In this document: positions 2-31,197 of the stretch, in pieces
Layout of the letters: the number at the start of each line of letters is the position of its first letter
Numbering within the stretch: the stretch's first letter is position 1
Virus record (IMG/VR): IMGVR_UViG_3300001919_000084
DNA: 32,067 nt
Source: a virus
Lineage: Duplodnaviria; Heunggongvirae; Uroviricota; Caudoviricetes
Strand: one strand, 5' to 3'
The notes under the pieces: generated by a model
Seen by the model: the letters and a program-made list of their open reading frames with translations, nothing else
Database searches by the model: none
What the model was told of the DNA's origin: nothing
Position numbers and translations under genes: made by a program

Positions 2-220
2 CCAGGTGCTGCGGATGATTTCCTGTCGGTGATTAACCCGGAATCGCTGGTGATCAAACAAGGCTTTGCTGAACCGTCGCTGAAAGAAGCGGTAGCGGGT
101 AAAGCATTCCAGTTTGAGCGTGAAGGTTATTTCTGCCTCGACAGCCGCCATTCTACGGCGGAAAAACCGGTATTTAACCGCACCGTTGGGCTGCGTGATA
201 CCTGGGCGAAGTTAGGTTAA
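2..220 (+). CDS. glnS: glutaminyl-tRNA synthetase, C-terminal fragment (5' end outside window)
   Basis: Frame open from the window edge to TAA at 218-220; translation ...[72 protein letters not shown] matches the enterobacterial GlnS C-terminus as I recall it. Listed ORF 29-220 is only the part after an internal Met. Confidence 0.75.
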
Positions 221-1830: not shown

Positions 1831-2736
1831 TTAACGTTCTGCTTCACCACCAACGGCCTCCACCAGCGAAGTGAACATCGCTGATAATTCAGCAGTAAAC
1901 AGGATAAAGTCAGCGTCAAATCGTTGAGCAACATCCTCTCGATCAATATCGTCGTTCTGGTCGTACAATTCGTCGCTGAACGACAAAGCCTTGATACTCA
2001 TATCGTCATTCAGTCTGAAAAATGCACGGTCTTGCCAGTTAACCGCAACTGTGGTTGCAACCTTACCAGCTTCTATATGACTCATGATCTCGTCGGATAG
2101 CAGGTCCACTTTTTTGCAGCGGACCGCGCCGCCATCATCAAGCAATGCTTTTAAGGTCGCTTCCTCACCGGCACGGAAACCGTTCGGGAAGCCATTTTTA
2201 ATCCAGCCAGTGATGGTCAGTTCTAATGGGTCTTTCGGAGAGAAGGGGACAACGGGCAAGCTGCCAAGAGATTTCCGTAACAAAGCCAGCTGATCCTCTG
2301 CTTTTTTAGCACTGCTCGCCTCGACAAAAACCAGATGATTGCTTCGGTCTATCAGGATTTTAGCGACTGATTTTCTCGTGAAAGCACGAGGAAGAAGAGA
2401 GTGAAGCACTTCATCCTTCAGCGAATCTTTTTCGGTCTTCTTCAGCTTTCTGTCTTGTTCTTCTTCAAGTTTCAGGATTTTTTTCTGTAGCTCTTCTTTG
2501 AGCACTTGAGAAGGTAGGATTTTTTCCTCTCGTTTATGCTGTATCAGAAGAAAACCCTTGTATTCATGGGTGAGGTTGTCGCCAAGGACGGGGGTCCAAC
2601 CAGCTTTAGCAATATCCTGAGAACCGCATGGGGTAAACACAAACTTGTTAAGGGCAGCATTTACTTCTGCGGTATCCCAGTTAACTTCGCGTGAAAGACG
2701 ATAGATGAAGATATTTTTGAAAGCGACTGATCTCAT
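1831..2736 (-). CDS. rdgC: RdgC-like recombination-associated protein
   Basis: 301 aa; [12 protein letters not shown]...FTPCGSQD...EEKILPS...[24 protein letters not shown]...[23 protein letters not shown]...[15 protein letters not shown]...GGEA align along the full length with E. coli RdgC as I recall it. Confidence 0.85.
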
Positions 2737-2749
2737 GTCTCACCATTTA

Positions 2750-2779
2750 TGTTAGAAAATGCATGTTAATTATCTAACA
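2750..2779. promoter_or_regulatory. inverted repeat TGTTAGA-N16-TCTAACA (operator-like site 1)
   Basis: tgttagaaaatgcatgttaattatctaaca: 7-bp arms, 16-bp spacer, in the 57-bp gap between the spike-like gene and rdgC. Same architecture recurs at 15025-15054 and 20016-20045. Confidence 0.4.
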
Positions 2780-2795
2780 CAAATGGGTGCATTTT

Positions 2796-3449
2796 CTATC
2801 CTTTCTTGAAATCGAAGTTGCCAGCAGTGGCCTGAAAGGTTCCTCCTGCCTTGAAAGCTATGTCCCCGTTAGCGGTGACAGCTATATTTTCCCCATTAAC
2901 ATTGATGTTGTTGGCTGATTTGACGTTAACACTCCCTCCTGCATTCACGATTACATCAGCCGGACCAATGATATATATCTGCCCGGACTCATTCATGCCA
3001 ATCCTTGAGCCAGCTGCCGTATTGGCAATTTCATAGCCGCCACCAGCAGTTCGTACTTCAAGAATATTGTTGCGGTGAATAACGAAGTCTTTCGTTGCTG
3101 AGATTTGGGGGCGGGGAGGTGCTCCATCTACTTCCGGCGGCGTCCAGCCGTTGCCTTTGCCAGATGCTTCTGGTGCAACGTTTGGAATTCCTCCCGGTGC
3201 ATCCTGAGCGGCACCAACTATCATTGGGCGTCTGGTGTCTATTCGACCGTTAACATCTAAATAAGGAAACTCTACCCAGACCAGGTCACCTTTGACTGTA
3301 GGTACAAAAGCGTTCCCGATGGGTAACTGGTATTCCGCCCAGGGTAGATCGTCATCAGGAACGCCATTCCAGTCAGGTAAAACACGGACTTGAGCACGCA
3401 TAAGCCCTGCCGGGTGCACAGTTCCAACAATTTGCGCTCTACGCTTCAT
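2796..3449 (-). CDS. phage baseplate spike-like protein (gpV/gp5-type OB-fold plus beta-helix)
   Basis: N-terminus IVGTVHPAGLMRAQVRVLPDW...LPWAEYQLPIG...VKGDLVWVEFPY resembles the gp5/gpV/VgrG OB-fold signature. C-terminus carries short G/N/V beta-helix-type repeats (NAGGSVNVKSANNINVNGENIAVTANGDIAF). ATGA overlap with the upstream gene. Confidence 0.5.
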   Translation of the reverse strand: MKRRAQIVGTVHPAGLMRAQVRVLPDWNGVPDDDLPWAEYQLPIGNAFVPTVKGDLVWVEFPYLDVNGRIDTRRPMIVGAAQDAPGGIPNVAPEASGKGNGWTPPEVDGAPPRPQISATKDFVIHRNNILEVRTAGGGYEIANTAAGSRIGMNESGQIYIIGPADVIVNAGGSVNVKSANNINVNGENIAVTANGDIAFKAGGTFQATAGNFDFKKG

Positions 3450-4426
3450 TTGTTCGGCACTCCCAATATCATTCGTGTTGTGTAGCCTACGCGGTCCTCA
3501 AAGTGCGCAACATTTTTTACTATCAGCTTACGGGGCATTGATTCATCAATGCGGTTTTCCTGGTCATAGCGGTATACGATAATCTCTATTACCATCCCCG
3601 GTTTTATATCAGGATTGCCTGCGACTTCTATATCCATTTTGGGGACGAGAGACAGCTGCATATTGCGAAGAGTTTCCATATCAGAGTCGGATATATAACG
3701 CACTGGGAGTGAGCTATCGCCATATTCGACGTAGCCATCGGTCATGGAATACCCAACAAAACGATATTGATTCTTTGCTGTTGACGCATGTTCCTGTTGG
3801 AGTAGGCGCATTTTTGACAAAGTGTATTCTGCTTTAGGGTTATTCCCCTCGTAGGTAAATGATGGCGTTTGCTTCATCAGATCAGCCAGGGTGTAAAAGT
3901 TAAATTCCCCCCGACATACCCAACACAATGCACCTTTGTCTCGCGCTATCTCCGAAAGCATTTTTGACGGTTTGTCACCAGCATTCAGATGATATGTAAC
4001 TGCGCGTTTTAGCACGCTGCTGGTAATTTTAAGCTTGCCGGAATATGCCTTGAATATAGCGTCTGGTGTTTTGTTGGTATGTAAATTTGTGCGCGGGGAG
4101 GGGATCTTAAACCTGCGCACGTCTTCACTGACAGCAATAACGGTAACAACATCACCAGCCAGCATTGCAGACGTAACAAAGAAATCTGTTTTAAAAGTGC
4201 CTGCATTACCGTTTGGATCGCCCATTTCAGCCACCAGCGATGCACCGTATTTGGCTTTCCAGTCATCAATTACGGTGCCGGTAGCGTCATGAATTTCCAG
4301 TTTTAGCAAAGGGGCTTTGAGGCTGGTTTTTTCTACATATACTGCGGTAAAAATCCAGTCTCGTGGCACTTTGTTATCGTTAATGAGCACTGACTGTAGA
4401 AAATATTGTTGTAACTCCTGGGCCAC
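3446..4426 (-). CDS. hypothetical protein (326 aa), possible baseplate-hub partner of the spike-like protein
   Basis: Long ORF with GTG start preceded by GGGGTGA; tightly coupled to flanking genes. Hub assignment is inferred from gene order only. Confidence 0.5.
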   Translation of the reverse strand: MAQELQQYFLQSVLINDNKVPRDWIFTAVYVEKTSLKAPLLKLEIHDATGTVIDDWKAKYGASLVAEMGDPNGNAGTFKTDFFVTSAMLAGDVVTVIAVSEDVRRFKIPSPRTNLHTNKTPDAIFKAYSGKLKITSSVLKRAVTYHLNAGDKPSKMLSEIARDKGALCWVCRGEFNFYTLADLMKQTPSFTYEGNNPKAEYTLSKMRLLQQEHASTAKNQYRFVGYSMTDGYVEYGDSSLPVRYISDSDMETLRNMQLSLVPKMDIEVAGNPDIKPGMVIEIIVYRYDQENRIDESMPRKLIVKNVAHFEDRVGYTTRMILGVPNK

Positions 4427-4429
4427 TTA

Positions 4430-5197
4430 TCACCCCATAGATATCGAGGTTTCGGTAATAATACGTTTTGCGTCCAACTCCCATGCTGTGATCACGTCTG
4501 CAATCACACTTATCGGCGCTTGTGTGGCATAAATACGCTCTTCTCCAATTGGTGCTGAAACATCCGTAAAGCCGACTTCTTTGGCATCCTGTATCGAGCA
4601 AATCAGCGGGACCGGGACACGAACAAGGTGAGTGGTTGCTTCAAATTGTGTACCTGTCATCAGGCGAAGCCGTGCGCCCAGCGAATTACACATCAGACTC
4701 ATGGTCGCTTTATCAGTTGCCATTAACGTAACGTCATACGTCAGAATGGCCTGGGTGTATTCCAGTTCTGCTAAAGGCGTTCCGGTATCTGGTTCGCAAA
4801 AACTGGCTACTTTTTTGCGGTCAATCTGCTGATCATCGTTGATATAATTGATATCCATAGTGCGTGAGATATTGACCAGGGGGAGAGCATCCCGGTTAAT
4901 GTTCTGGTTTTCAGGTTTTCTCCCTTGCCCGGCATTTGCGCGACGAACTGCTTTAAGAAACTCGATCGCATTGTCGAAACGGGCCATATAGACACGCTCT
5001 GCTGGTGGACGATTCAGGAATGACGCAAAGCGTTTTTCTTCCGGCGCGGGGGCCACCAGTAAGATATCAGAAAAAATGTTGCTGATTAGCGTCGCAAACG
5101 CGTTATCCACGTTTTCAAAGCCCGTGGTCTGGAATTTTCCTGTGCGTAAGGTTTGCCATTCACCGGTTCGCGCCAGGAGGGTTTTATTTGAAGTCAT
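4430..5197 (-). CDS. hypothetical protein (255 aa)
   Basis: Long ORF whose ATG overlaps the upstream stop (ATGA); no motif recognised. Confidence 0.5.
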   Translation of the reverse strand: MTSNKTLLARTGEWQTLRTGKFQTTGFENVDNAFATLISNIFSDILLVAPAPEEKRFASFLNRPPAERVYMARFDNAIEFLKAVRRANAGQGRKPENQNINRDALPLVNISRTMDINYINDDQQIDRKKVASFCEPDTGTPLAELEYTQAILTYDVTLMATDKATMSLMCNSLGARLRLMTGTQFEATTHLVRVPVPLICSIQDAKEVGFTDVSAPIGEERIYATQAPISVIADVITAWELDAKRIITETSISMG

Positions 5198-5985
5198 TCG
5201 ATCACTCCGTTTTGAGTCGTATCAAAATTCCTGGCAGGTATGCAGTAGTAAAGCGAACCAACATGCTGTGTGCCGTAGCTAAAAATACGGTGCACGTACC
5301 ACCAGCGGCGGGCTACGCCGTTTACCATCTCTTCATTCCATTCAAGAATTGAGCCGACGGGGACGTTATTTGCTGCAATACGCAGAATCAGAACATCATC
5401 GGTTAAGCCATCCTGCTCACCGTCTGCGTCAATCGCATGGAAAGAGTCACGCCCGTCAGGGTTATCCAGCACATAAACGATTTCAGGTTCCTGGTAAGTC
5501 AGTTCGCGTTGGTTGTTATCCAGTTCAGTGAATGACTCTTCTCCTGTTTCGTCGCTGACTACCCCATATGTGCCAACATCTGGTCGATATAAGAGAGCCT
5601 GAAACGCGTCTGGGCTGGATTCAATAATCAGCATCCAGTCTGCGCGGATTTGGTCGTTAAAGGCTTTATGCCCGTTATAGCGTGCTTTTAGCTGTGGAGT
5701 TGGTTCTCTGCCAGCCAGGGAAGGAGGAAGTATGGCTATATCTGATTCGCCAGCATCCGGAGTAAGGCCACCGTTGCTATCAGCAAAATTATCATGGCTA
5801 TCAGCTTTGGCGGCGGGTTGCTCTTCCAGAATGCTGAATGAATCCGAACCGGTATTGCCATGTTCCGGCGCGCCTCCTGCATTCGCTTCAATCGGCGCTG
5901 GCGTTTCTCTCTGCGTGCTGTCATGTTCTGACTCCTTACTTGCCAGGTTTGCATCGTCAGCAAACCATTCGTCAAAACGGCCCAT
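5194..5985 (-). CDS. hypothetical protein with acidic low-complexity N-terminal half
   Basis: ORF 5194-5997 trimmed to ATG at 5985 (GAGG 6 nt upstream). N-terminal ~100 aa are D/E/S/G/P/A-rich; the C-terminal ~160 aa look globular. First gene of the leftward operon. Confidence 0.5.
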   Translation of the reverse strand: MGRFDEWFADDANLASKESEHDSTQRETPAPIEANAGGAPEHGNTGSDSFSILEEQPAAKADSHDNFADSNGGLTPDAGESDIAILPPSLAGREPTPQLKARYNGHKAFNDQIRADWMLIIESSPDAFQALLYRPDVGTYGVVSDETGEESFTELDNNQRELTYQEPEIVYVLDNPDGRDSFHAIDADGEQDGLTDDVLILRIAANNVPVGSILEWNEEMVNGVARRWWYVHRIFSYGTQHVGSLYYCIPARNFDTTQNGVIE

Positions 5986-6079
5986 AAGCATCCTCAAAGG
6001 TCGATCTGTCAGGTATCGAAAGGAAGATTTTCGGGAGATTGTGATTTTGGATGAAGGAGGGGGAATTCATAAAATGCAC

Positions 6080-6108
6080 TTGCGCACAGTGCAACAGTGC
6101 GCTATAGT
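6080..6108 (+). promoter_or_regulatory. higBA promoter/operator candidate
   Basis: TTGCGC (-35-like), 17 bp, TATAGT (-10-like), with inverted repeat GCGCAC-N9-GTGCGC (6082-6102) and direct repeat ACAGTGC x2 overlapping the spacer; about 40 bp upstream of higB. Confidence 0.4.
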
Positions 6109-6147
6109 TATGGCATTCGGTAATCATCACGGAGGATCAAATGACTA

Positions 6148-6450
6148 ATGACCAAAAAAATTAACATAAAGGATTTCAGGGATGCGTGGCTTGATGATTT
6201 TTTTGAATTTTCAACACCACATAGAAAGATACCTCCTGATATTCATATGACATTGTCACGGAAGTTGGACATTATCAATGCCGCAACTACCTGTAAGGAT
6301 TTAAGATCACCACCAGGTAATCGGTATGAGGAACTGTCAGGGAAGCTAAATGGCTATTCATCAGTAAGGGTGAATAAGCAATATAGGTTAATTTTTAAGT
6401 GGGTTAACGGAAAGGCCGAGGACTTGTATCTCGACCCTCACAAATACTAA
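6148..6450 (+). CDS. higB: HigB-family toxin (RelE/ParE superfamily)
   Basis: 100 aa; KDLRSPPGNRYEELSGKLNGYSSVRVNKQYRLIFKWVNGKAEDLYLDPHKY matches the HigB killer-protein signature; GGAGG upstream; followed by a HigA-like gene. Confidence 0.8.
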   Translation: MTKKINIKDFRDAWLDDFFEFSTPHRKIPPDIHMTLSRKLDIINAATTCKDLRSPPGNRYEELSGKLNGYSSVRVNKQYRLIFKWVNGKAEDLYLDPHKY

Positions 6451-6520
6451 AACAGATACCCGGTTACGGACCGGGTTCTGACCAGAGTCCACTTAATACG
6501 TACGCTAGTAAGGGCAAAAA

Positions 6521-6859
6521 ATGAAACAGGCAACCAGAAAACCGACGACCGTAGGTGATATCCTGCTGTACGAATACCTGGAGCCGTTAGAGCTGAAGAT
6601 CAACGAGTTAGCAGAAATACTTCATGTTCATCGTAACACCGTAAGTGCTCTTGTTAATAATAATCGTAAGCTAACGATGGATATGGCATATCGCCTGGCA
6701 AAAGCATTCGATACTTCTGTAGATTTTTGGATTAATCTTCAGACCGCAGTAGATCTGTGGGAAGTCGAAAATGATATGCGCGTTCAGGAAGAGTTAAGTC
6801 GTATCAATACTGCTGAAAAATTTATTTCTCAGCGGAACCTGAATAAAAAAGCAGCCTGA
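6521..6859 (+). CDS. higA: HigA-family antitoxin (XRE-type HTH)
   Basis: 112 aa; VGDILLYEYLEPLELKINELAEILHVHRNTVSALVNNNRKLTMDMAYRLAKAFDTSVDFWINLQ is a typical HigA HTH; AAGGG upstream. Confidence 0.8.
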   Translation: MKQATRKPTTVGDILLYEYLEPLELKINELAEILHVHRNTVSALVNNNRKLTMDMAYRLAKAFDTSVDFWINLQTAVDLWEVENDMRVQEELSRINTAEKFISQRNLNKKAA

Positions 6860-6880
6860 TATAGTAAAACACATACAAAA

Positions 6881-6908
6881 AGCCCACTTAGCAAGTGGGC
6901 TTTCCTTT
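6881..6908 (+). terminator. rho-independent terminator after higA
   Basis: Stem agcccactt / aagtgggct with loop agc, followed by tttcctttg. Confidence 0.55.
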
Positions 6909-6915
6909 GTAATTA

Positions 6916-7116
6916 ATGAACATTAAACCTATCCGTACAGAACAAGATTATGAGGCCGCACTGCGTGCGGTCAAACCGATGTTCGATAACGAACCGGAAA
7001 TGAATACTCCGGAAGGTGATTTCTTTGAGGTTATGAGTCTTCTCATTGAGGAGTACGAGAAGAAACATTACCCAATTCAGCCACCATCACCTGTTGAATC
7101 TTTTAACTATCCATAA
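6916..7116 (+). pseudogene. HigA/antitoxin-like N-terminal domain fragment lacking an HTH
   Basis: 66-aa ORF MNIKPIRTEQDYEAALRAVKPMFDNEPEMNTPEGDFFEVMSLLIEEYEKKHYPI resembles the N-terminal domain of K-12-type HigA/XRE antitoxins but stops before any HTH; no SD, starts just after a terminator. Confidence 0.35.
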
Positions 7117-7137
7117 TAAAAGTAATCAGGATAAGCT

Positions 7138-7866
7138 ATGATGTCAGAAAAAGTTAAAGATAATCCGTCTATAAATGAAACAGAACTAAAATCATTTTCT
7201 GAAATAATAAAAGATAAAATATTTAACAAGGTTTTTGCATATGTTGTCATTTCTTTTCTAATTTTTAACTGGAAGGATATTTTAATTATATTAAAGTCAA
7301 AGGACGACATCCTATATACATTATCTATTGTTTTTGTTGGTGGTAATGTCCCGTTCTTTGATAATTGGATTGTATCCCCGTGGGTTTATCACTTTGTAAT
7401 CCCATTTGGTTATGGGGTATTTGCATCTGTGTTAGCTCCTATTCTCACACTGAAGATATCTAAGCTAACAAGTAAATTATACACTGAAATAAGATATTTA
7501 GATGAAGATGCTGATTATGATAAAAGAATAGAATTGCAAAGAAAGAAAACAAAGTTAAATCAAGCAACCAATGACGCTAAATATTCAAAACAAATCTTAG
7601 ATGAAAATGAAAATAAACTTAATGACCTAGCTACGAAACAGCGAGAAATTTGTGGCGCGATAAAACTATTGCATTCTGATGTTGGCAGTATTATTGAACT
7701 ATATAAAAATAAGGGGGTTAGCATTGAATCTCCGCAAGATTTATGTGATTTTATAGTCGCTATAAAAAGCACATCATTCTATAATGATGACAAGCATTTT
7801 AATAAATTGGTGTCTGATATTTCCAGTTTGTTTGATAATACTGGAATTGATCTTTCAAAAAAATGA
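7138..7866 (+). CDS. AT-rich membrane protein with cytoplasmic coiled-coil domain (accessory gene)
   Basis: 242 aa; AGGA 7 nt upstream; visibly lower GC than neighbours; predicted hydrophobic helices (VFAYVVISFLIFNW, ILYTLSIVFVGG, VIPFGYGVFASVLAPILTL) followed by a K/E/N-rich helical region. Confidence 0.6.
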   Translation: MMSEKVKDNPSINETELKSFSEIIKDKIFNKVFAYVVISFLIFNWKDILIILKSKDDILYTLSIVFVGGNVPFFDNWIVSPWVYHFVIPFGYGVFASVLAPILTLKISKLTSKLYTEIRYLDEDADYDKRIELQRKKTKLNQATNDAKYSKQILDENENKLNDLATKQREICGAIKLLHSDVGSIIELYKNKGVSIESPQDLCDFIVAIKSTSFYNDDKHFNKLVSDISSLFDNTGIDLSKK

Positions 7867-7872
7867 AAGCCC

Positions 7873-7911
7873 AGCATAAACTACTAGGCTATGTGTGGTT
7901 TATGCTTTTTT
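7873..7911. terminator. bidirectional terminator between convergent genes
   Basis: Stem agcataaac / gtttatgct with a 16-nt loop and a T6 run; overlaps the 3' end of the minus-strand gene. Confidence 0.45.
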
Positions 7912-9093
7912 CACGTACTCTATAAACATCTTCTCAGCCTGTTCTTGTGGCGTTCCAGCCATGACAAGCGCATCAATGAACGCCTGCTTCTTCAGTGCGA
8001 ACTGATCGGCAAGGCGTTGCTGAAGTTCCTTATTTTTCTGTTTCTCACGTTGCAAGGCCGCTTCTTTTGCAGCCGCCCGTTTTTTCTGTGCGTCTGACAA
8101 CTTTCTGGCCCTGGTCAATTGGTCACGTAGCTTGTCGATCTTGCCGTTGTCCTTTGCCAGTTTTGTACTTAAAGCTGCCTGGCGCTTCTGATAGAGCCTC
8201 CATTCGCGTTTGGCGGCTTCAACGTTCGTTTTACTGCTACGATTGCGATTAAACTCCTTCTCGTCTTCTTTTGAGAAGTGTTTGGTTGTACGGCGGCGAT
8301 CGTCACCAAATGCAATTTGCGTTGCAGCCTTTTGTAGCGCACGAGCAATACTCATTTGCCAACTGGCGGACTGTAACCGCGTCATTGAGTGGATCACGTG
8401 TTTACAGGCGACGCCTTGCAGCTTCGGGTTGCGAACTTTTGGATAGGCGTATTCTTTTGGCGGTGCCAGGGCAAAGTTACCCGCAGTGGCGATGTAACGA
8501 TACCAGTATTGATGACGACCACAGTCACAATCGAAAGACACTCGCCCGGCGCACAGTGATTTAGTGATTTTGAGAGCTGATTTATCGTCTTCTGCGATGT
8601 CATCAACCATCTGATCCCATTCTTCAAAGCGTATCCGGACGATATGGTGCTGGTGGACGGATATATCCGATGCTTCTACGCGGATATTAATCACATTGTG
8701 GCGAAGAGATACGGGTGTAGCTCTTTTGATACCAGATCCGTCATCCACGGCGTTATTTGCACGCTTAATATCGATTGCCTGGCTGGATGCCACCAGCTGG
8801 GCGTATGTGATGCCAGCCGTCTTGCTGTCATATTTTTCGCGCGTTTTACTCCGTAGCTTTTCGAAACCTTTCAGGTCGTCTCGCGTGAAGAACGTGCCGC
8901 CTTTTTTCTTCCCTAACTTGAGAATATCTTCGGCGGATTTGTTCCTCAGTCTACCTGGCGTCAGCGTCCGGTGAGCTTGTCGGCGCTTACGGGTTTGTTC
9001 TTTCCTGATAAGCTCGAATAAACGCGTGAAGTCCTTAGAGGACAGGCCGTCAGTGATATAGCGCCCGTCCTGGTTTTTCAGGAAATCAGGCAT
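7900..9093 (-). CDS. hypothetical protein with SWIM-type CxC...CxH motif and K/R/E/Q-rich coiled-coil tail
   Basis: 397 aa; FDCDCGRHQYWYRYIATAGNF...ACKHV fits a SWIM zinc-finger pattern; C-terminal 120 aa are charged and helical. Confidence 0.55.
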   Translation of the reverse strand: MPDFLKNQDGRYITDGLSSKDFTRLFELIRKEQTRKRRQAHRTLTPGRLRNKSAEDILKLGKKKGGTFFTRDDLKGFEKLRSKTREKYDSKTAGITYAQLVASSQAIDIKRANNAVDDGSGIKRATPVSLRHNVINIRVEASDISVHQHHIVRIRFEEWDQMVDDIAEDDKSALKITKSLCAGRVSFDCDCGRHQYWYRYIATAGNFALAPPKEYAYPKVRNPKLQGVACKHVIHSMTRLQSASWQMSIARALQKAATQIAFGDDRRRTTKHFSKEDEKEFNRNRSSKTNVEAAKREWRLYQKRQAALSTKLAKDNGKIDKLRDQLTRARKLSDAQKKRAAAKEAALQREKQKNKELQQRLADQFALKKQAFIDALVMAGTPQEQAEKMFIEYVKKA

Positions 9094-9415
9094 TTTCTAT
9101 CTCCGGTTCCGCGCTCGCGTAATCACGGATCTTGTTCCTCAGCCATGCCACATCAGGAAGAGTTAACGTGGTCCCGGCGGGCATTTCTTCCATTTCTGAC
9201 TCATGGCCCACCAGCACCCGGAATACCCAGCGCAAATCTGCATTGCCATACGCCCGGTAGGCTGCAAGGTCTGAACGATATACTTCATCAATCTTTATCG
9301 TGTACTGGAAATTATCAGAGTGATACTCCGATACCCGCTTAATCATTTCCTGGTGAAACAGCGCACGAAAAATATCGTCTTCAATGTACCTATCGTCGAG
9401 TCTGCTATAGCCCAT
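9086..9415 (-). CDS. hypothetical protein (109 aa)
   Basis: ATG at 9415 with GAGAGG 7 nt upstream; 8-nt overlap with the downstream gene. Confidence 0.55.
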   Translation of the reverse strand: MGYSRLDDRYIEDDIFRALFHQEMIKRVSEYHSDNFQYTIKIDEVYRSDLAAYRAYGNADLRWVFRVLVGHESEMEEMPAGTTLTLPDVAWLRNKIRDYASAEPEIENA

Positions 9416-9608
9416 AACAAAGCCTCTCAGTCATAACCTGGGGGAAACTGTATGCAGGGTGTGAAATGCGAGAAACAGACAGGCCACCAGTTCAGGGGGA
9501 TGTGGCTCATAAATCCCCTCACTGGTGACAAGTGACTTTCATTAATCTTTATGCGGGGGCCAGCTTCATTTGCTGGCATTAGATTAAAAATTAAACGGAG
9601 TGAATGAC

Positions 9609-10424: not shown

Positions 10425-10449
10425 AAAAAAAGGCCGCACATGGCGGCCT
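10425..10449 (-). terminator. leader terminator/attenuator candidate upstream of the 9744-10397 gene
   Basis: On the minus strand: aggccgc-catgt-gcggcct followed by T7, ending about 27 nt before the ATG at 10397. Confidence 0.45.
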
Positions 10450-10742
10450 GCTTTGGCGTTATGACTCCCTACCGCGCTTCGGCTGAAAGTTAATCGTCAA
10501 AAGAACCTTCAACGGGAGCCGTTAGCGCGATGGATTATGTGCAGTTTGTGATTTCCAAAATAGTGTCAACCACTTTTTGTGGATTTTATTTTTTGACAGA
10601 AATTTGGCCTAAATCATGTTGATTTGGCTGATTATTTTTATAACATAAAAGTCATTTTGATTGCATGAAGGACGGTGCAGTGAAGTTAAGGGTTTTAGGG
10701 ACCGCGCTCGCGGCTAAGATGGTAAGGTATGGAGTTAATGAA

Positions 10743-28094: not shown

Positions 28095-28772
28095 TCACTC
28101 CACTACAAACCAGTCACATGCCAGTAAGTCGCCTACAGAAGGAACCCACGGAACAACTACACCTTGTGCATTTTTTAAGGCGAAATAAGCACCATACGGA
28201 ACGAGGTCGCCGGGGAAATATCCCTTAATGGCTTCCATTCGTGCCGGGTACTGTCCTTCAGGAACCAGCCAGCAGAATTGGTTTTCGCCGTTCCACCCGC
28301 GTCGAGCAACTTTCTTGCCATCCTTCAGCCACATCAGCGCGTCAGAAAAGTCGGCTGCTTCAAGGTCGATTTCTTCTTGCTGGGTGGTGATGCCACCAGC
28401 AGAAATAGTTACGCTCCCGGTAAGATTAATCATCACGCCGTTGTCATCCGTAATGATGACCGTGGTTCCATTTTTGGAGGCGTCGTTAACCAGGCCATAG
28501 CGTTCCTCAAATGGTTTCTCCGGGGCATAGAACAGATAACCGTTTTCATAAACGATCAGATACCCGCCAGTTTTTGGTCGGTGTTTTTGTAAAAACATTG
28601 CGTCAACACAAACTGTTGCCCCTTTTGGTTCAACGAGTTCGATGCAGCCCCAAAGTGGGGCATCAGTTACTCCGAAAATAACAACATTTTTGATTTTCGA
28701 TGCACTAACGTTTTTGTGAGCTTTGTATTTGGGAAGGAACTTAAAAAGCTCTTTCGTTGCCATGTTATTCAT
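28095..28772 (-). CDS. hypothetical protein with C-terminal DUF2829-like domain
   Basis: 225 aa; C-terminal FSDALMWLKDGKKVARRGWNGENQFCWLV resembles the DUF2829 motif (W..G..V.R.GW). Confidence 0.5.
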   Translation of the reverse strand: MNNMATKELFKFLPKYKAHKNVSASKIKNVVIFGVTDAPLWGCIELVEPKGATVCVDAMFLQKHRPKTGGYLIVYENGYLFYAPEKPFEERYGLVNDASKNGTTVIITDDNGVMINLTGSVTISAGGITTQQEEIDLEAADFSDALMWLKDGKKVARRGWNGENQFCWLVPEGQYPARMEAIKGYFPGDLVPYGAYFALKNAQGVVVPWVPSVGDLLACDWFVVE

Positions 28773-28786
28773 AGTCTTTTCTCTGC

Positions 28787-29281
28787 TTATAACTTTTCGT
28801 ACTGAAGCGGTGAACGCTTAATTTCAAAGTGGCCTTCCGATGTGCTACCAAAGCCACCAGCACCACGTTCCGTTTCGTTGAGTTCCTCAACCTCGACTAG
28901 TGAGACTTGTTCAACTCGTTCAAAAATTCCTTGCATGACAGCCATTCCAGGCTTGAGACAAACGCCTTCCCCGCCGGGATCAGTAATCAGTTTTGCCATG
29001 ATTTCGCCGCGATAATCGGAGTCGATAATTCCTACGCAGTTAGCCAGGCGAGTATGTTTTTTGCAGCCCAATCCGGATCGCGGATAGAGTTTCAGACACC
29101 AGCCGGGCGGGATCTCCATAGCCAGTCCGGTATACACCCACCAGCTTGAGGAAATTGCACCATTGCTATCGACGCATGGTTTTATTTCAACAGCCTCAAA
29201 ATCCATCGCCGCCGATCCGGAGGTGGCATAAGCTGGAAGTTTTGCTGCCGGATGTAGGCGTTTCACTTTTACGTAAATCAT
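28787..29281 (-). CDS. dut: dUTP diphosphatase (dUTPase)-like
   Basis: 164 aa; LPAYATSGSAAMD, PRSGLG, IDSDYRGEI and RGAGGFGST match dUTPase motifs; ATGA overlap with the upstream gene. Confidence 0.75.
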   Translation of the reverse strand: MIYVKVKRLHPAAKLPAYATSGSAAMDFEAVEIKPCVDSNGAISSSWWVYTGLAMEIPPGWCLKLYPRSGLGCKKHTRLANCVGIIDSDYRGEIMAKLITDPGGEGVCLKPGMAVMQGIFERVEQVSLVEVEELNETERGAGGFGSTSEGHFEIKRSPLQYEKL

Positions 29282-30168: not shown

Positions 30169-31197
30169 TTATGAATCCATCAGGCGGCTATTAGCCCCCA
30201 CAGACACGCCGCCACGGCGCAGATACCGCATAAGTGTTTCCGGTTTCTTCCAGGTTCCTTCCTGCATGATCTCCACCATAGACACCTGCTTTTCTGCCAT
30301 ATCGATAGCAGCCCCGACACGAGCACTATGCCCGGTCCACGTCCGGTATCTCCCCTTGTTTGGAGTGGCATCTCTTTTATTCAGCAACACCCAGGCGTCA
30401 CTAAATATTTTCTCCATTGCAGGTGCAGTAAGGGGCGTTGTCGTAATCCTGGCCTTATTGCTACGGTGTATCGGCGGGAACAGCACCGCGTCAGGATGTT
30501 CACGAAGCCCGGAAACATCCAGCCAGTCATTCAGCACAGCAGTAGTGCGACGGGAAAGCACCTTATCAAGCCCGGCGGCGGTCGTTATTGTCTTCGTGTG
30601 TGAAATATGTAGCGTGACAGTGTCACCTGTTTGGTCCAGATCTCCTACACGAATACGCGAGATTTCAGACATGCGCATCAGCGTATTGTATGCAACAAAG
30701 AGAAAAGCCCGGTTGCGCAGGTCCACCAGCCGTTCTGACCTGGACAACAGGACGTCGAGCAGTTTCAGATCGTCCCACCGCAGCGGTATAGCCTGGCCTG
30801 TTCGTTCGCCTTTTTCCGTTGCCGCTTCACGCCGGATGCGCCGCATAGCCAGAGAAACACTTTTATCATCCGAAAGTGGCGGAAGGCCACAATGCGAAAG
30901 CAGCATGTTCAGCATGGCGTAGTGCTTATCAATGGTGGTCGAAGCCAGATCAGCATCATGCAGCTGAAGAAAATACTCGCGGGCCATCTCTGGAGAGATC
31001 GGGAACCAGGCGAGCTGGCGAGCGTGACACCATCTCGCCCAGGAGTGAAACACTAACCGGAGATCGCGCAAAGTATTAGGCGCGTAAGCCCCCTGGTCAT
31101 TCATGAACCGCATAAAGTTTTCTGCGGCCTCCTGGTACTCTTTGCCAATGTTGCGCAGAAAACCACTGGAGCTGCCAGAGATAATTAATTCACTCAT
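30169..31197 (-). CDS. Cre-family tyrosine site-specific recombinase
   Basis: 342 aa; aligns over the full length with P1 Cre as I recall it: WFPISPEMAREYFLQL / WFPAEPEDVRDYLLYL, LNML, GLPPLSDDKSVSLAMRRIRRE / GLPRPSDSNAVSLVMRRIRKE, LRNRAFLFVAYNTLMRMSEISRIRV / IRNLAFLGIAYNTLLRIAEIARIRV, HSARVGAAIDMA / HSARVGAARDMA, and a C-terminal RYLR tyrosine. Confidence 0.85.
   Translation of the reverse strand: MSELIISGSSSGFLRNIGKEYQEAAENFMRFMNDQGAYAPNTLRDLRLVFHSWARWCHARQLAWFPISPEMAREYFLQLHDADLASTTIDKHYAMLNMLLSHCGLPPLSDDKSVSLAMRRIRREAATEKGERTGQAIPLRWDDLKLLDVLLSRSERLVDLRNRAFLFVAYNTLMRMSEISRIRVGDLDQTGDTVTLHISHTKTITTAAGLDKVLSRRTTAVLNDWLDVSGLREHPDAVLFPPIHRSNKARITTTPLTAPAMEKIFSDAWVLLNKRDATPNKGRYRTWTGHSARVGAAIDMAEKQVSMVEIMQEGTWKKPETLMRYLRRGGVSVGANSRLMDS

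Follow-up and report, generated by a model that had tools for sequence, protein, structure and literature searches.

The late operon 26-25-7-24-6-5 of phage P1 holds six genes that lie contiguously behind LP26 and are flanked by non-tail genes. Structures of the P1 stopper, terminator, hub, spike and plug have been solved (PMC12810830, PMC10304247): gp7 is a hexameric stopper, gp5 is a spike without a lysozyme domain and gp26 is the plug in the baseplate (PMC12810830), and gp24 is the tail terminator (PMC10304247). The hub role of gp6 was described from the structure (PMC12810830) and from proteomics with HHpred (PMC9024508). P1 genes 5, 6, 24 and 7 were all scored as essential by CRISPRi (PMC10695390). 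In phage D6 and its relatives the unit contains these six genes with order and strand unchanged, at protein identities of 22 to 56% to P1, and in both lineages the sheath, tube and tape-measure genes are clustered elsewhere. Further afield, the hub-spike pairs T4 gp5-gp27, P2 gpV-gpD and Mu gp45-gp44 and the VgrG protein of the T6SS combine an OB-fold with a β-helix.

The window analysed here (the whole stretch of DNA, 32,067 nucleotides) is part of a P1-related phage-plasmid of the D6 type, which is intact and widespread. Its nucleotide identity to phage D6 is approximately 99% (99.2% across 2700-6100), and 100% identical matches were found in D6-like plasmids of E. coli. The block of interest corresponds to D6 orf66-orf69 (NC_050154 / MF356679; Gilcrease & Casjens 2018) in genes, order and flanks, with higBA upstream and rdgC/hrdC downstream, and the D6 annotation labels the six tail genes as "similar to P1 gene 5/6/24/7/25/26". 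The features of the region are as follows.

1831..2736, minus strand: rdgC, the P1 hrdC homologue (Pfam RdgC, E 1e-101), 59 nt downstream of gene 5
2796-3449, minus strand: ORF, gene 5 homologue, 217 aa
3446-4426, minus strand: ORF, gene 6 homologue, 326 aa, GTG start
4430-5197, minus strand: ORF, gene 24 homologue, 255 aa
5194-5985, minus strand: ORF, gene 7 homologue, 263 aa counted from the ATG, or 267 aa with an upstream TTG as start
6027..6047, minus strand: candidate late promoter of gene 7, AAATCACAA-TCTCCC-GAAAAT, 41 nt upstream of the ATG
6148..7866, plus strand: accessory-gene insert (moron) splitting the tail unit, variable in content
6148-6450, plus strand: higB (Pfam HigB-like_toxin, E 4e-35)
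6521-6859, plus strand: higA (Pfam HTH_3)
6916-7116, plus strand: truncated HTH ORF
7138-7866, plus strand: ORF of 242 aa, approximately 32% GC
7868..7890, minus strand: hairpin and T-run resembling a terminator, immediately past the stop codon of gene 25 (-13 kcal/mol, z -2.9)
7900-9093, minus strand: P1 gene 25 homologue, virion-associated "tail stability" protein (phrog_1722, E 3e-196; 55.7% identity to P1 gp25; D6 orf74)
9086-9415, minus strand: P1 gene 26 homologue, baseplate plug (phrog_1269, E 2e-36; 40.6% identity to P1 gp26)

The four leftward genes described in an earlier note on this DNA (263, 255, 326 and 217 aa) are all real minus-strand ORFs, and their position between higBA and the rdgC/methyltransferase genes agrees with the flanks observed here. 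The note had them joined throughout by ATGA/GTGA overlaps; a 4-nt ATGA overlap is present at both the 7/24 and the 6/5 junction, but the 24/6 junction reads TGA-TAA-GTG, with a 3-nt spacer and no overlap. The ATG of the gene 7 homologue at 5985 is preceded, at a distance of 6 nt, by an SD-like GAGG. Downstream of gene 5, the window carries rdgC where P1 has dbn/ban, and the gene 5-rdgC adjacency recurs in two D6-like plasmids (L004 and L005). Since no terminator-like site was seen between 2736 and 2796, i.e., after gene 5, it is plausible from the sequence that the block is co-transcribed with rdgC and the methyltransferase genes. The products would be essential virion proteins, probably made from one late transcription unit.

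The 217-aa product was examined in the most detail. It matches P1 Gp5 (PDB 9vzk_q) with an E-value of 1e-54, aligned to Gp5 residues 7-203 without an insertion, and belongs to phrog_430 (E 2e-45). Profile searches also retrieved All3320, Afp8, VgrG and the β-helix of T4 gp5, whereas sequence similarity to the T4, P2, Mu and VgrG families is marginal (profile E 7e-5 to 0.03). The AlphaFold2 model, built on a 38-sequence alignment, has a pLDDT of 94.3 (a single-sequence run gave 37), and its best Foldseek match is again P1 gp5 (9vzk_q; E 2.5e-21, TM 0.74/0.78, full length), followed by the spikes of eCIS, VgrG, R2 pyocin, P2 gpV (3qr8) and Mu (9ki1_V). The spike-like architecture proposed earlier, an OB-fold followed by a β-helix, is thus the one recovered, and the spike call is correct. 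The N-terminal OB-fold is present in both the model and the Foldseek results, where IF1-type OB folds match residues ~1-80. At the C-terminus, β-helix repeats are present that are predicted to be triple-stranded; profile positions 152-209 match the β-helix of the T4 gp5 and phiKZ gp164 constructs and the C-termini of VgrG proteins. Seven relatives of the protein carry PF04717, which the protein itself did not reach in Pfam at E <= 0.01, and DUF2345 gave a weak, sub-threshold match to residues 115-216. Pfam detected no lysozyme family, and the 217-aa chain has no insertion relative to P1 Gp5; in this it differs from T4 gp5, which contains a lysozyme domain. Taken together, the 2796..3449 product is predicted to be a trimeric central spike of the P1 gp5 subfamily of the gp5/gpV/VgrG type, lacking lysozyme. 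Many of the proteins found in the spike-homologue search lie on contigs of ~80-92 kb, the size of these phage-plasmids, and those with a source name are called baseplate proteins.

As in other hub-spike systems, the spike gene immediately follows the hub gene; VgrG, on the other hand, combines hub and spike in one gene, whereas the D6-type genes are separate. The 326-aa product matches P1 Gp6 over nearly its whole length (PDB 9vzk_1; E 7.8e-72, residues 6-325 against chain residues 16-337; 37.7% identity) and belongs to phrog_1390 (E 6e-144), which bears out the earlier suggestion that it is the hub partner of the spike. The 3446..4426 product is therewith assigned by homology as a putative trimeric baseplate hub of the T4 gp27 / Mu gp44 type. 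Such a trimer would form the hub above the spike, and by analogy with the P1 cryo-EM structure we infer that the spike trimer would sit beneath this gp27-like hub and carry at its tip a PAAR protein (UpfC), whose gene lies in another part of the plasmid; a PAAR/UpfC gene is found on the carrier plasmid and in D6.

The remaining two products place the block beyond the baseplate, contrary to its reading as baseplate genes only: their P1 counterparts, the stopper and the tail terminator, lie at the end of the tail nearest the head (PMC12810830, PMC10304247). The gp7 homologue, which corresponds to D6 orf69 (annotated "similar to P1 gene 7"), matches P1 Gp7 (PDB 9ums_B) with an E-value of 7.5e-43 (residues 103-260 against chain residues 81-235), is 46% identical over the C-terminal 158 aa and belongs to phrog_1906 (E 2e-116). 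The homology covers the helix, β-sandwich and loop region of P1 gp7. The ~100-aa acidic N-terminus that the note had pointed out was confirmed by composition: it is of low complexity, with 20 D/E vs 6 K/R and 41% P/G/S/T/N/Q. This segment cannot be aligned with P1 gp7, yet it resembles in composition the first 80 residues of that protein (25 D/E, 0 K/R); the acidic N-terminus is a trait common to the gp7 family. The 5194..5985 product is predicted to be the stopper (head-completion) protein of the head-tail connector, P1 gp7 type, and as a hexamer it would close the portal-adaptor connector and dock onto the tail.

The gp24 homologue is a more distant match to its P1 counterpart, with 22% identity over 227 aa (E 4e-18) and an E-value of 1.4e-14 to Gp24 (PDB 8jan_y) over residues 16-235. 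It belongs to phrog_1767 (E 2e-112), and its gene occupies the same place as in P1, flanked by the homologues of genes 7 and 6. The 4430..5197 product is accordingly annotated as a probable tail terminator of the P1 gp24 / T4 gp15 type, a hexamer of which would cap the tube and sheath. A Pfam search gave no match for three of the four block proteins.

The block thus consists of stopper, tail terminator, hub and spike genes, which are ordinary, previously described structural genes, and it is already known rather than a new system. We are highly confident that the four products are virion proteins of the D6 type from a P1-type late unit, with roles assigned from their homologues in the solved P1 virion. 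The block had been taken to lie outside any tail module; however, the homologues of P1 genes 25 and 26 are only 1.9 kb upstream on the same strand, and it looks isolated because the P1-like phage family scatters its tail genes over the genome. The reported lack of sheath, tube, tape-measure and capsid genes nearby is likewise an effect of where the window was cut, together with this scattered layout: a full-length plasmid of 95.8 kb matches the window at 100% identity and has the rest of the morphogenetic genes, including those for sheath, capsid, transglycosylase/tape-measure and PAAR proteins close by on the left of the window, and on it the missing sheath, tube, capsid and tape-measure genes are located 7-25 kb left of where the window begins. 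The orphan-looking spike operon was therefore a false lead explained by the layout of P1-family phage-plasmids, and its significance is small, every protein of the block having a solved P1 counterpart.

Two other origins were considered for the block. It could be a deletion remnant, i.e., a decayed Mu/P2-like baseplate fragment stranded in a defective element, as a 32-kb window devoid of sheath, tube, tape-measure and capsid genes might suggest, and some D6-like plasmids are indeed truncated (a 74.5-kb record; the p75 variant, PMC6799933). Nevertheless, none of the four ORFs is broken, all are 98-100% identical to their counterparts in plaque-forming D6, the arrangement is kept in ~89 plasmids and in P1, and the 95.8 kb carrier plasmid is complete. 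These observations contradict a remnant, which we regard as very improbable and reject; what had been read as a relic of a Mu/P2-like hub-spike region is instead the distal four genes of the P1-family 26-25-7-24-6-5 late unit. Even less credible is a domesticated module, a stand-alone injected, virion-associated or anti-defence complex made of something other than tail parts. The neighbouring toxin-antitoxin, rdgC and methyltransferase genes would suit such a complex, and the acidic disordered N-terminus of the first protein recalls DNA-mimic proteins, but the N-terminus of P1 gp7 is equally acidic, each of the four proteins has a one-to-one P1 virion homologue at a defined structural position, and the named spike homologues are called baseplate proteins, many on contigs of phage-plasmid size. 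Domestication was rejected on these grounds, and no support was found for a domesticated, injected or anti-defence complex.

The D6-type tail unit differs from that of P1 in how it may be transcribed. In P1, 3 nt separate genes 25 and 7, whereas in the window a 1.9-kb opposite-strand cassette lies between them. The P1 operon promoter is AAATGACTA-N4-TAGAAT, whereas gene 7 of the window is preceded by AAATCACAA-N6-GAAAAT. A single contiguous unit, read from an Lpa promoter of the P1 type (AAGTNACTT-N4-TANNNT) in front of gene 26, is not present in the window. The P1-type pattern was built from LPpro, LPlyz, LPdar and LP26; neither the window nor D6 shows an excess of it (8 vs 8.2 expected; 1 vs 0.9 expected), it does not occur upstream of gene 7, and the sole good match in the window (9530-9548) is directed away from gene 26. 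In a generic sigma-70 scan, the number of matches did not rise above background (16 vs 18.4 expected). On the other hand, a motif with the consensus AAATCACAA-N6-NANNNT, derived in the present analysis, precedes ten D6 late genes or operons, including gene 7, on the correct strand. At the nine others, the distance from motif to start codon is 24-49 nt (136 nt for mat). When the other half of D6 served as an independent test set, 7 motif matches were found vs 1.6 expected, and none of 100 shuffles reached 7. Gene 7 therefore appears, from the sequence, to have its own late promoter, and the late promoters of D6 would use the AAATCACAA box, 6 nt from the -10 element, instead of the AAGTNACTT box of P1.

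Alternatively, genes 7-24-6-5 may have no promoter of their own and depend only on read-through from mat-26-25, antisense over the higBA insert. The single six-gene operon of P1, with its 3-nt gap between 25 and 7, is consistent with this arrangement, and the GAAAAT element of the candidate promoter is a weak -10. It is nevertheless unlikely, given the terminator-like hairpin with a T-run after gene 25 and the motif that gene 7 shares with the upstream regions of nine other late genes or operons. Furthermore, in three D6-like plasmids with different upstream inserts, conservation restarts exactly at the motif, at the edge of the variable insert. We tentatively propose that late transcription in D6 has been re-wired relative to P1 and that an internal gene 7 promoter uncouples 7-24-6-5 from 26-25, but that this is both real and not already described is doubtful; the D6 genome paper may report it. 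Uncoupling would make the 25/7 junction a permissive slot for toxin-antitoxin and candidate defence cassettes, so that, if the proposal is true, such cassettes would be swapped within a structural unit that is itself essential. As a by-product, phage-plasmid annotators would gain a consensus for D6-type late promoters that can be put to the test.

In the D6 lineage, a variable opposite-strand cassette of toxin-antitoxin or accessory genes parts genes 25 and 7. The content of the slot varies between D6-like plasmids, and the junction may be of use to annotators as a variable cargo slot for toxin-antitoxin and possibly defence genes; PADLOC gave no match for the 242-aa ORF, rdgC or the methyltransferase. 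The GC content falls to 0.325 in 7001-8000. Within the slot, the 242-aa ORF shares no more than 61% identity with its D6 allele, and the second HTH gene is a truncated form of 66 aa, compared with 119 aa in D6.

In the window, the four leftward genes of the earlier note are present at the positions given, and each encodes a protein that matches one chain of the solved P1 virion.

5194-5985, minus strand: homologue of P1 gene 7, 263 aa from an ATG with GAGG ahead of it
4430-5197, minus strand: homologue of P1 gene 24, 255 aa
3446-4426, minus strand: homologue of P1 gene 6, 326 aa, GTG start
2796-3449, minus strand: homologue of P1 gene 5, 217 aa

The 217-aa protein matches P1 Gp5 (chain 9vzk_q, E = 1e-54), the 326-aa protein Gp6 (9vzk_1, E = 8e-72), the 255-aa protein Gp24 (8jan_y, E = 1e-14), and residues 103 to 260 of the first protein, taken as the 267-aa ORF that begins at an alternative TTG start at 5997, match Gp7 (9ums_B, E = 7.5e-43). 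The PHROG families of the four proteins are concordant with these matches (E = 2e-45 to 6e-144), and the pairwise identities to P1 are 46% for gp5, 38% for gp6, 22% for gp24 and 46% for the C-terminal part of gp7. The coupling by ATGA/GTGA overlaps that had been proposed holds at the 7/24 and 6/5 junctions, which are ATGA overlaps, but not at the 24/6 junction, which reads TGA-TAA-GTG with a 3-nt spacer.

All four are structural genes that are already known, and so is the type of phage. Escherichia phage D6, a plasmid prophage related to P1, is 99.2% identical to window 2700-6100, and in its record the block appears as orf69-orf66, "similar to P1 gene 7, 24, 6, 5". Over window 2700-9500 and 1-25000, identity is 100% to E. 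coli plasmids that include NZ_CP050999 and NZ_CP122593. Approximately 89 PLSDB plasmids carry at least 80% of a 6.8-kb query, with E. coli, Salmonella and Shigella among the records listed, and 25 of 5,426 complete E. coli genomes carry at least 80% of a 25-kb query.

In the cryo-EM structures of P1, gp7 forms a hexameric stopper, the tail terminator is a hexamer of gp24 and the hub a trimer of gp6; the trimeric spike gp5 lacks lysozyme and bears the PAAR-like UpfC at its tip, and the baseplate plug is gp26 (PMC12810830, PMC10304247). The same hub, terminator and spike assignments were made in an earlier HHpred and proteomics study (PMC9024508), and genes 5, 6, 24 and 7 were all essential in a CRISPRi screen of P1 (PMC10695390). 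By analogy with P1, the block is predicted to encode two head-proximal parts (stopper and terminator) as well as two baseplate-centre parts (hub and spike), and hence more than a hub-spike module.

The reading of the 217-aa protein as an OB-fold and beta-helix spike is borne out by structure prediction. AlphaFold gave a pLDDT of 37 from the single sequence and of 94.3 with 38 homologues, and the best Foldseek match of the model in the PDB is P1 gp5 (E = 2.5e-21, TM = 0.74/0.78), followed by the injection-system spikes of Algoriphagus, Anabaena, AFP and PVC and by T6SS VgrG; the R2 pyocin spike, phi92 gp138, P2 gpV and the Mu spike are further matches. The sequence profile also matches All3320, Afp8, VgrG and the T4 gp5 beta-helix (E = 7e-5 to 0.03), and PF04717 is present in seven relatives.

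The acidic N-terminus noted in the first protein is likewise confirmed by composition: the N-terminal 100 residues of the gp7 homologue are of low complexity and contain 20 D/E, 6 K/R and 41 P/G/S/T/N/Q, and the first 80 residues of P1 gp7 contain 25 D/E and no K/R. The openings of P1 gp7 and the homologue are similar (MAGFFDDMFED against MGRFDEWFADD); the rest of the N-terminus is not alignable. The acidity is a trait conserved in the stopper family and does not point to a new function.

The operon had been called isolated and outside any tail module, which does not hold, as two further tail gene homologues lie upstream on the same strand.

7900-9093, minus strand: homologue of P1 gene 25, 56% identity
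9086-9415, minus strand: homologue of P1 gene 26, 41% identity
6148-7866, plus strand: slot with higB, higA, a truncated HTH ORF and a 242-aa ORF

In P1, genes 26-25-7-24-6-5 are contiguous behind the late promoter LP26, whereas 1.9 kb of plus-strand genes interrupt the unit in the window. The P1 unit is bordered by pmgL at one end and dbn/ban at the other, and lies far from the sheath and tube genes; thus, separation from other tail clusters is a family trait, and the scattering of P1 tail genes was stressed previously (PMC9024508). On NZ_CP122593, genes for sheath, capsid and PAAR proteins and for a transglycosylase, which in D6 is the Sit/tape-measure homologue, lie 7 to 25 kb left of the window start, and the D6 layout is the same. 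A distant metagenomic relative possibly has a comparable cluster, judged by gene sizes only, with regulator and toxin-antitoxin-like genes after the spike gene and then large unannotated genes. Although the earlier observation was largely correct, its interpretation as an isolated block, a remnant or a domesticated module is unsupported.

Variable cargo occupies the slot between genes 25 and 7, a feature that is possibly new. The 242-aa ORF of the slot (approximately 32% GC) has no family match and shares just 61% identity with the D6 allele, yet the flanking tail genes are approximately 99% identical. The HTH ORF, 66 aa long where D6 has 119 aa, covers just positions 1 to 65 of the PADLOC PD-Lambda-2_B profile. 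The slot of E. coli pEHP91H1-2 holds a different HigB-family toxin and an HTH gene, and in a Shigella dysenteriae plasmid its place is taken by a gap of just 270 nt in which no gene is listed. The slot may be a defence or abortive-infection cassette.

The P1 late-promoter pattern derived from four annotated P1 promoters (AAGTNACTT-N4-TANNNT) is absent upstream of gene 7 and shows no enrichment. Comparison of the regions upstream of D6 late operons gave a different motif, AAATCACAA-N6-NANNNT, of which two copies are as follows.

6027-6047, minus strand: candidate promoter of gene 7
10534-10554, minus strand: candidate late promoter of mat

With one mismatch allowed at most, five matches occur in the D6 half with this locus, where 1.4 are expected; each lies on the coding strand, and they precede pmgB-sit, gene 23, upfC, gene 7 and mat. 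The other half, which was not part of the derivation, has seven (1.6 expected; 0 of 100 shuffles reach 7), five of them preceding the lysozyme-like orf16, the portal gene (prt), ddrB, the holin gene lydA and the tail-fibre gene R by 29 to 38 nt. Over both halves, 9 of 12 matches precede a start codon on the same strand by 24 to 49 nt, and another (mat) does so by 136 nt. Among three D6-like plasmids whose upstream inserts are unrelated, conservation restarts exactly at the gene 7 motif. The gene 7 copy is a candidate late promoter for transcription of the block, and the motif is probably the binding box of the D6 Lpa-like activator; the D6-type consensus is possibly new. Between gene 26 and mat, a perfect P1-type pattern (AAGTGACTT-TCAT-TAATCT; 9530-9548, plus strand) is directed away from gene 26; no other perfect copy occurs in the window or in the 43-kb D6 stretch covering the locus (L001).

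A hairpin with a T-run directly follows gene 25.

7868-7890, minus strand: hairpin and T-run

From gene 5 to rdgC, no terminator-like site was found on this strand, and the next one (267-246) follows the dam-like gene; this makes read-through from the block into rdgC and the methyltransferase genes plausible. The 59-nt gene 5/rdgC spacer contains an AU-rich hairpin (2742-2787, minus strand; -18.8 kcal/mol, z = -3.1) that overlaps the rdgC ribosome-binding region; because no T-run follows, it is not an intrinsic terminator, but might serve as an operator or in translational control. Between the candidate mat promoter (10554-10534) and the D6-annotated mat start (approximately 10397) is a GC-rich hairpin with a T-run (10431-10449, minus strand); its position inside the mat leader hints at antitermination control.

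Elsewhere in the window, a phage-borne gene for glutaminyl-tRNA synthetase (glnS; 3' end at 29-220, plus strand) is followed by a bidirectional terminator (246-267) common to the convergent dam-like methyltransferase gene, which the RefSeq record of plasmid NZ_CP122593 gives as a pseudogene with an incomplete N-terminus. A 225-aa ORF (28095-28772, minus strand) with a C-terminal Tad2-like (Thoeris anti-defence 2) domain (E = 1.8e-22) adjoins a dUTPase-family ORF (28787-29281). A tyrosine recombinase ORF with a Phage_integrase domain is located at 30169-31197 on the minus strand, and from its position near the D6 rox site we take it to be the putative Cre counterpart.
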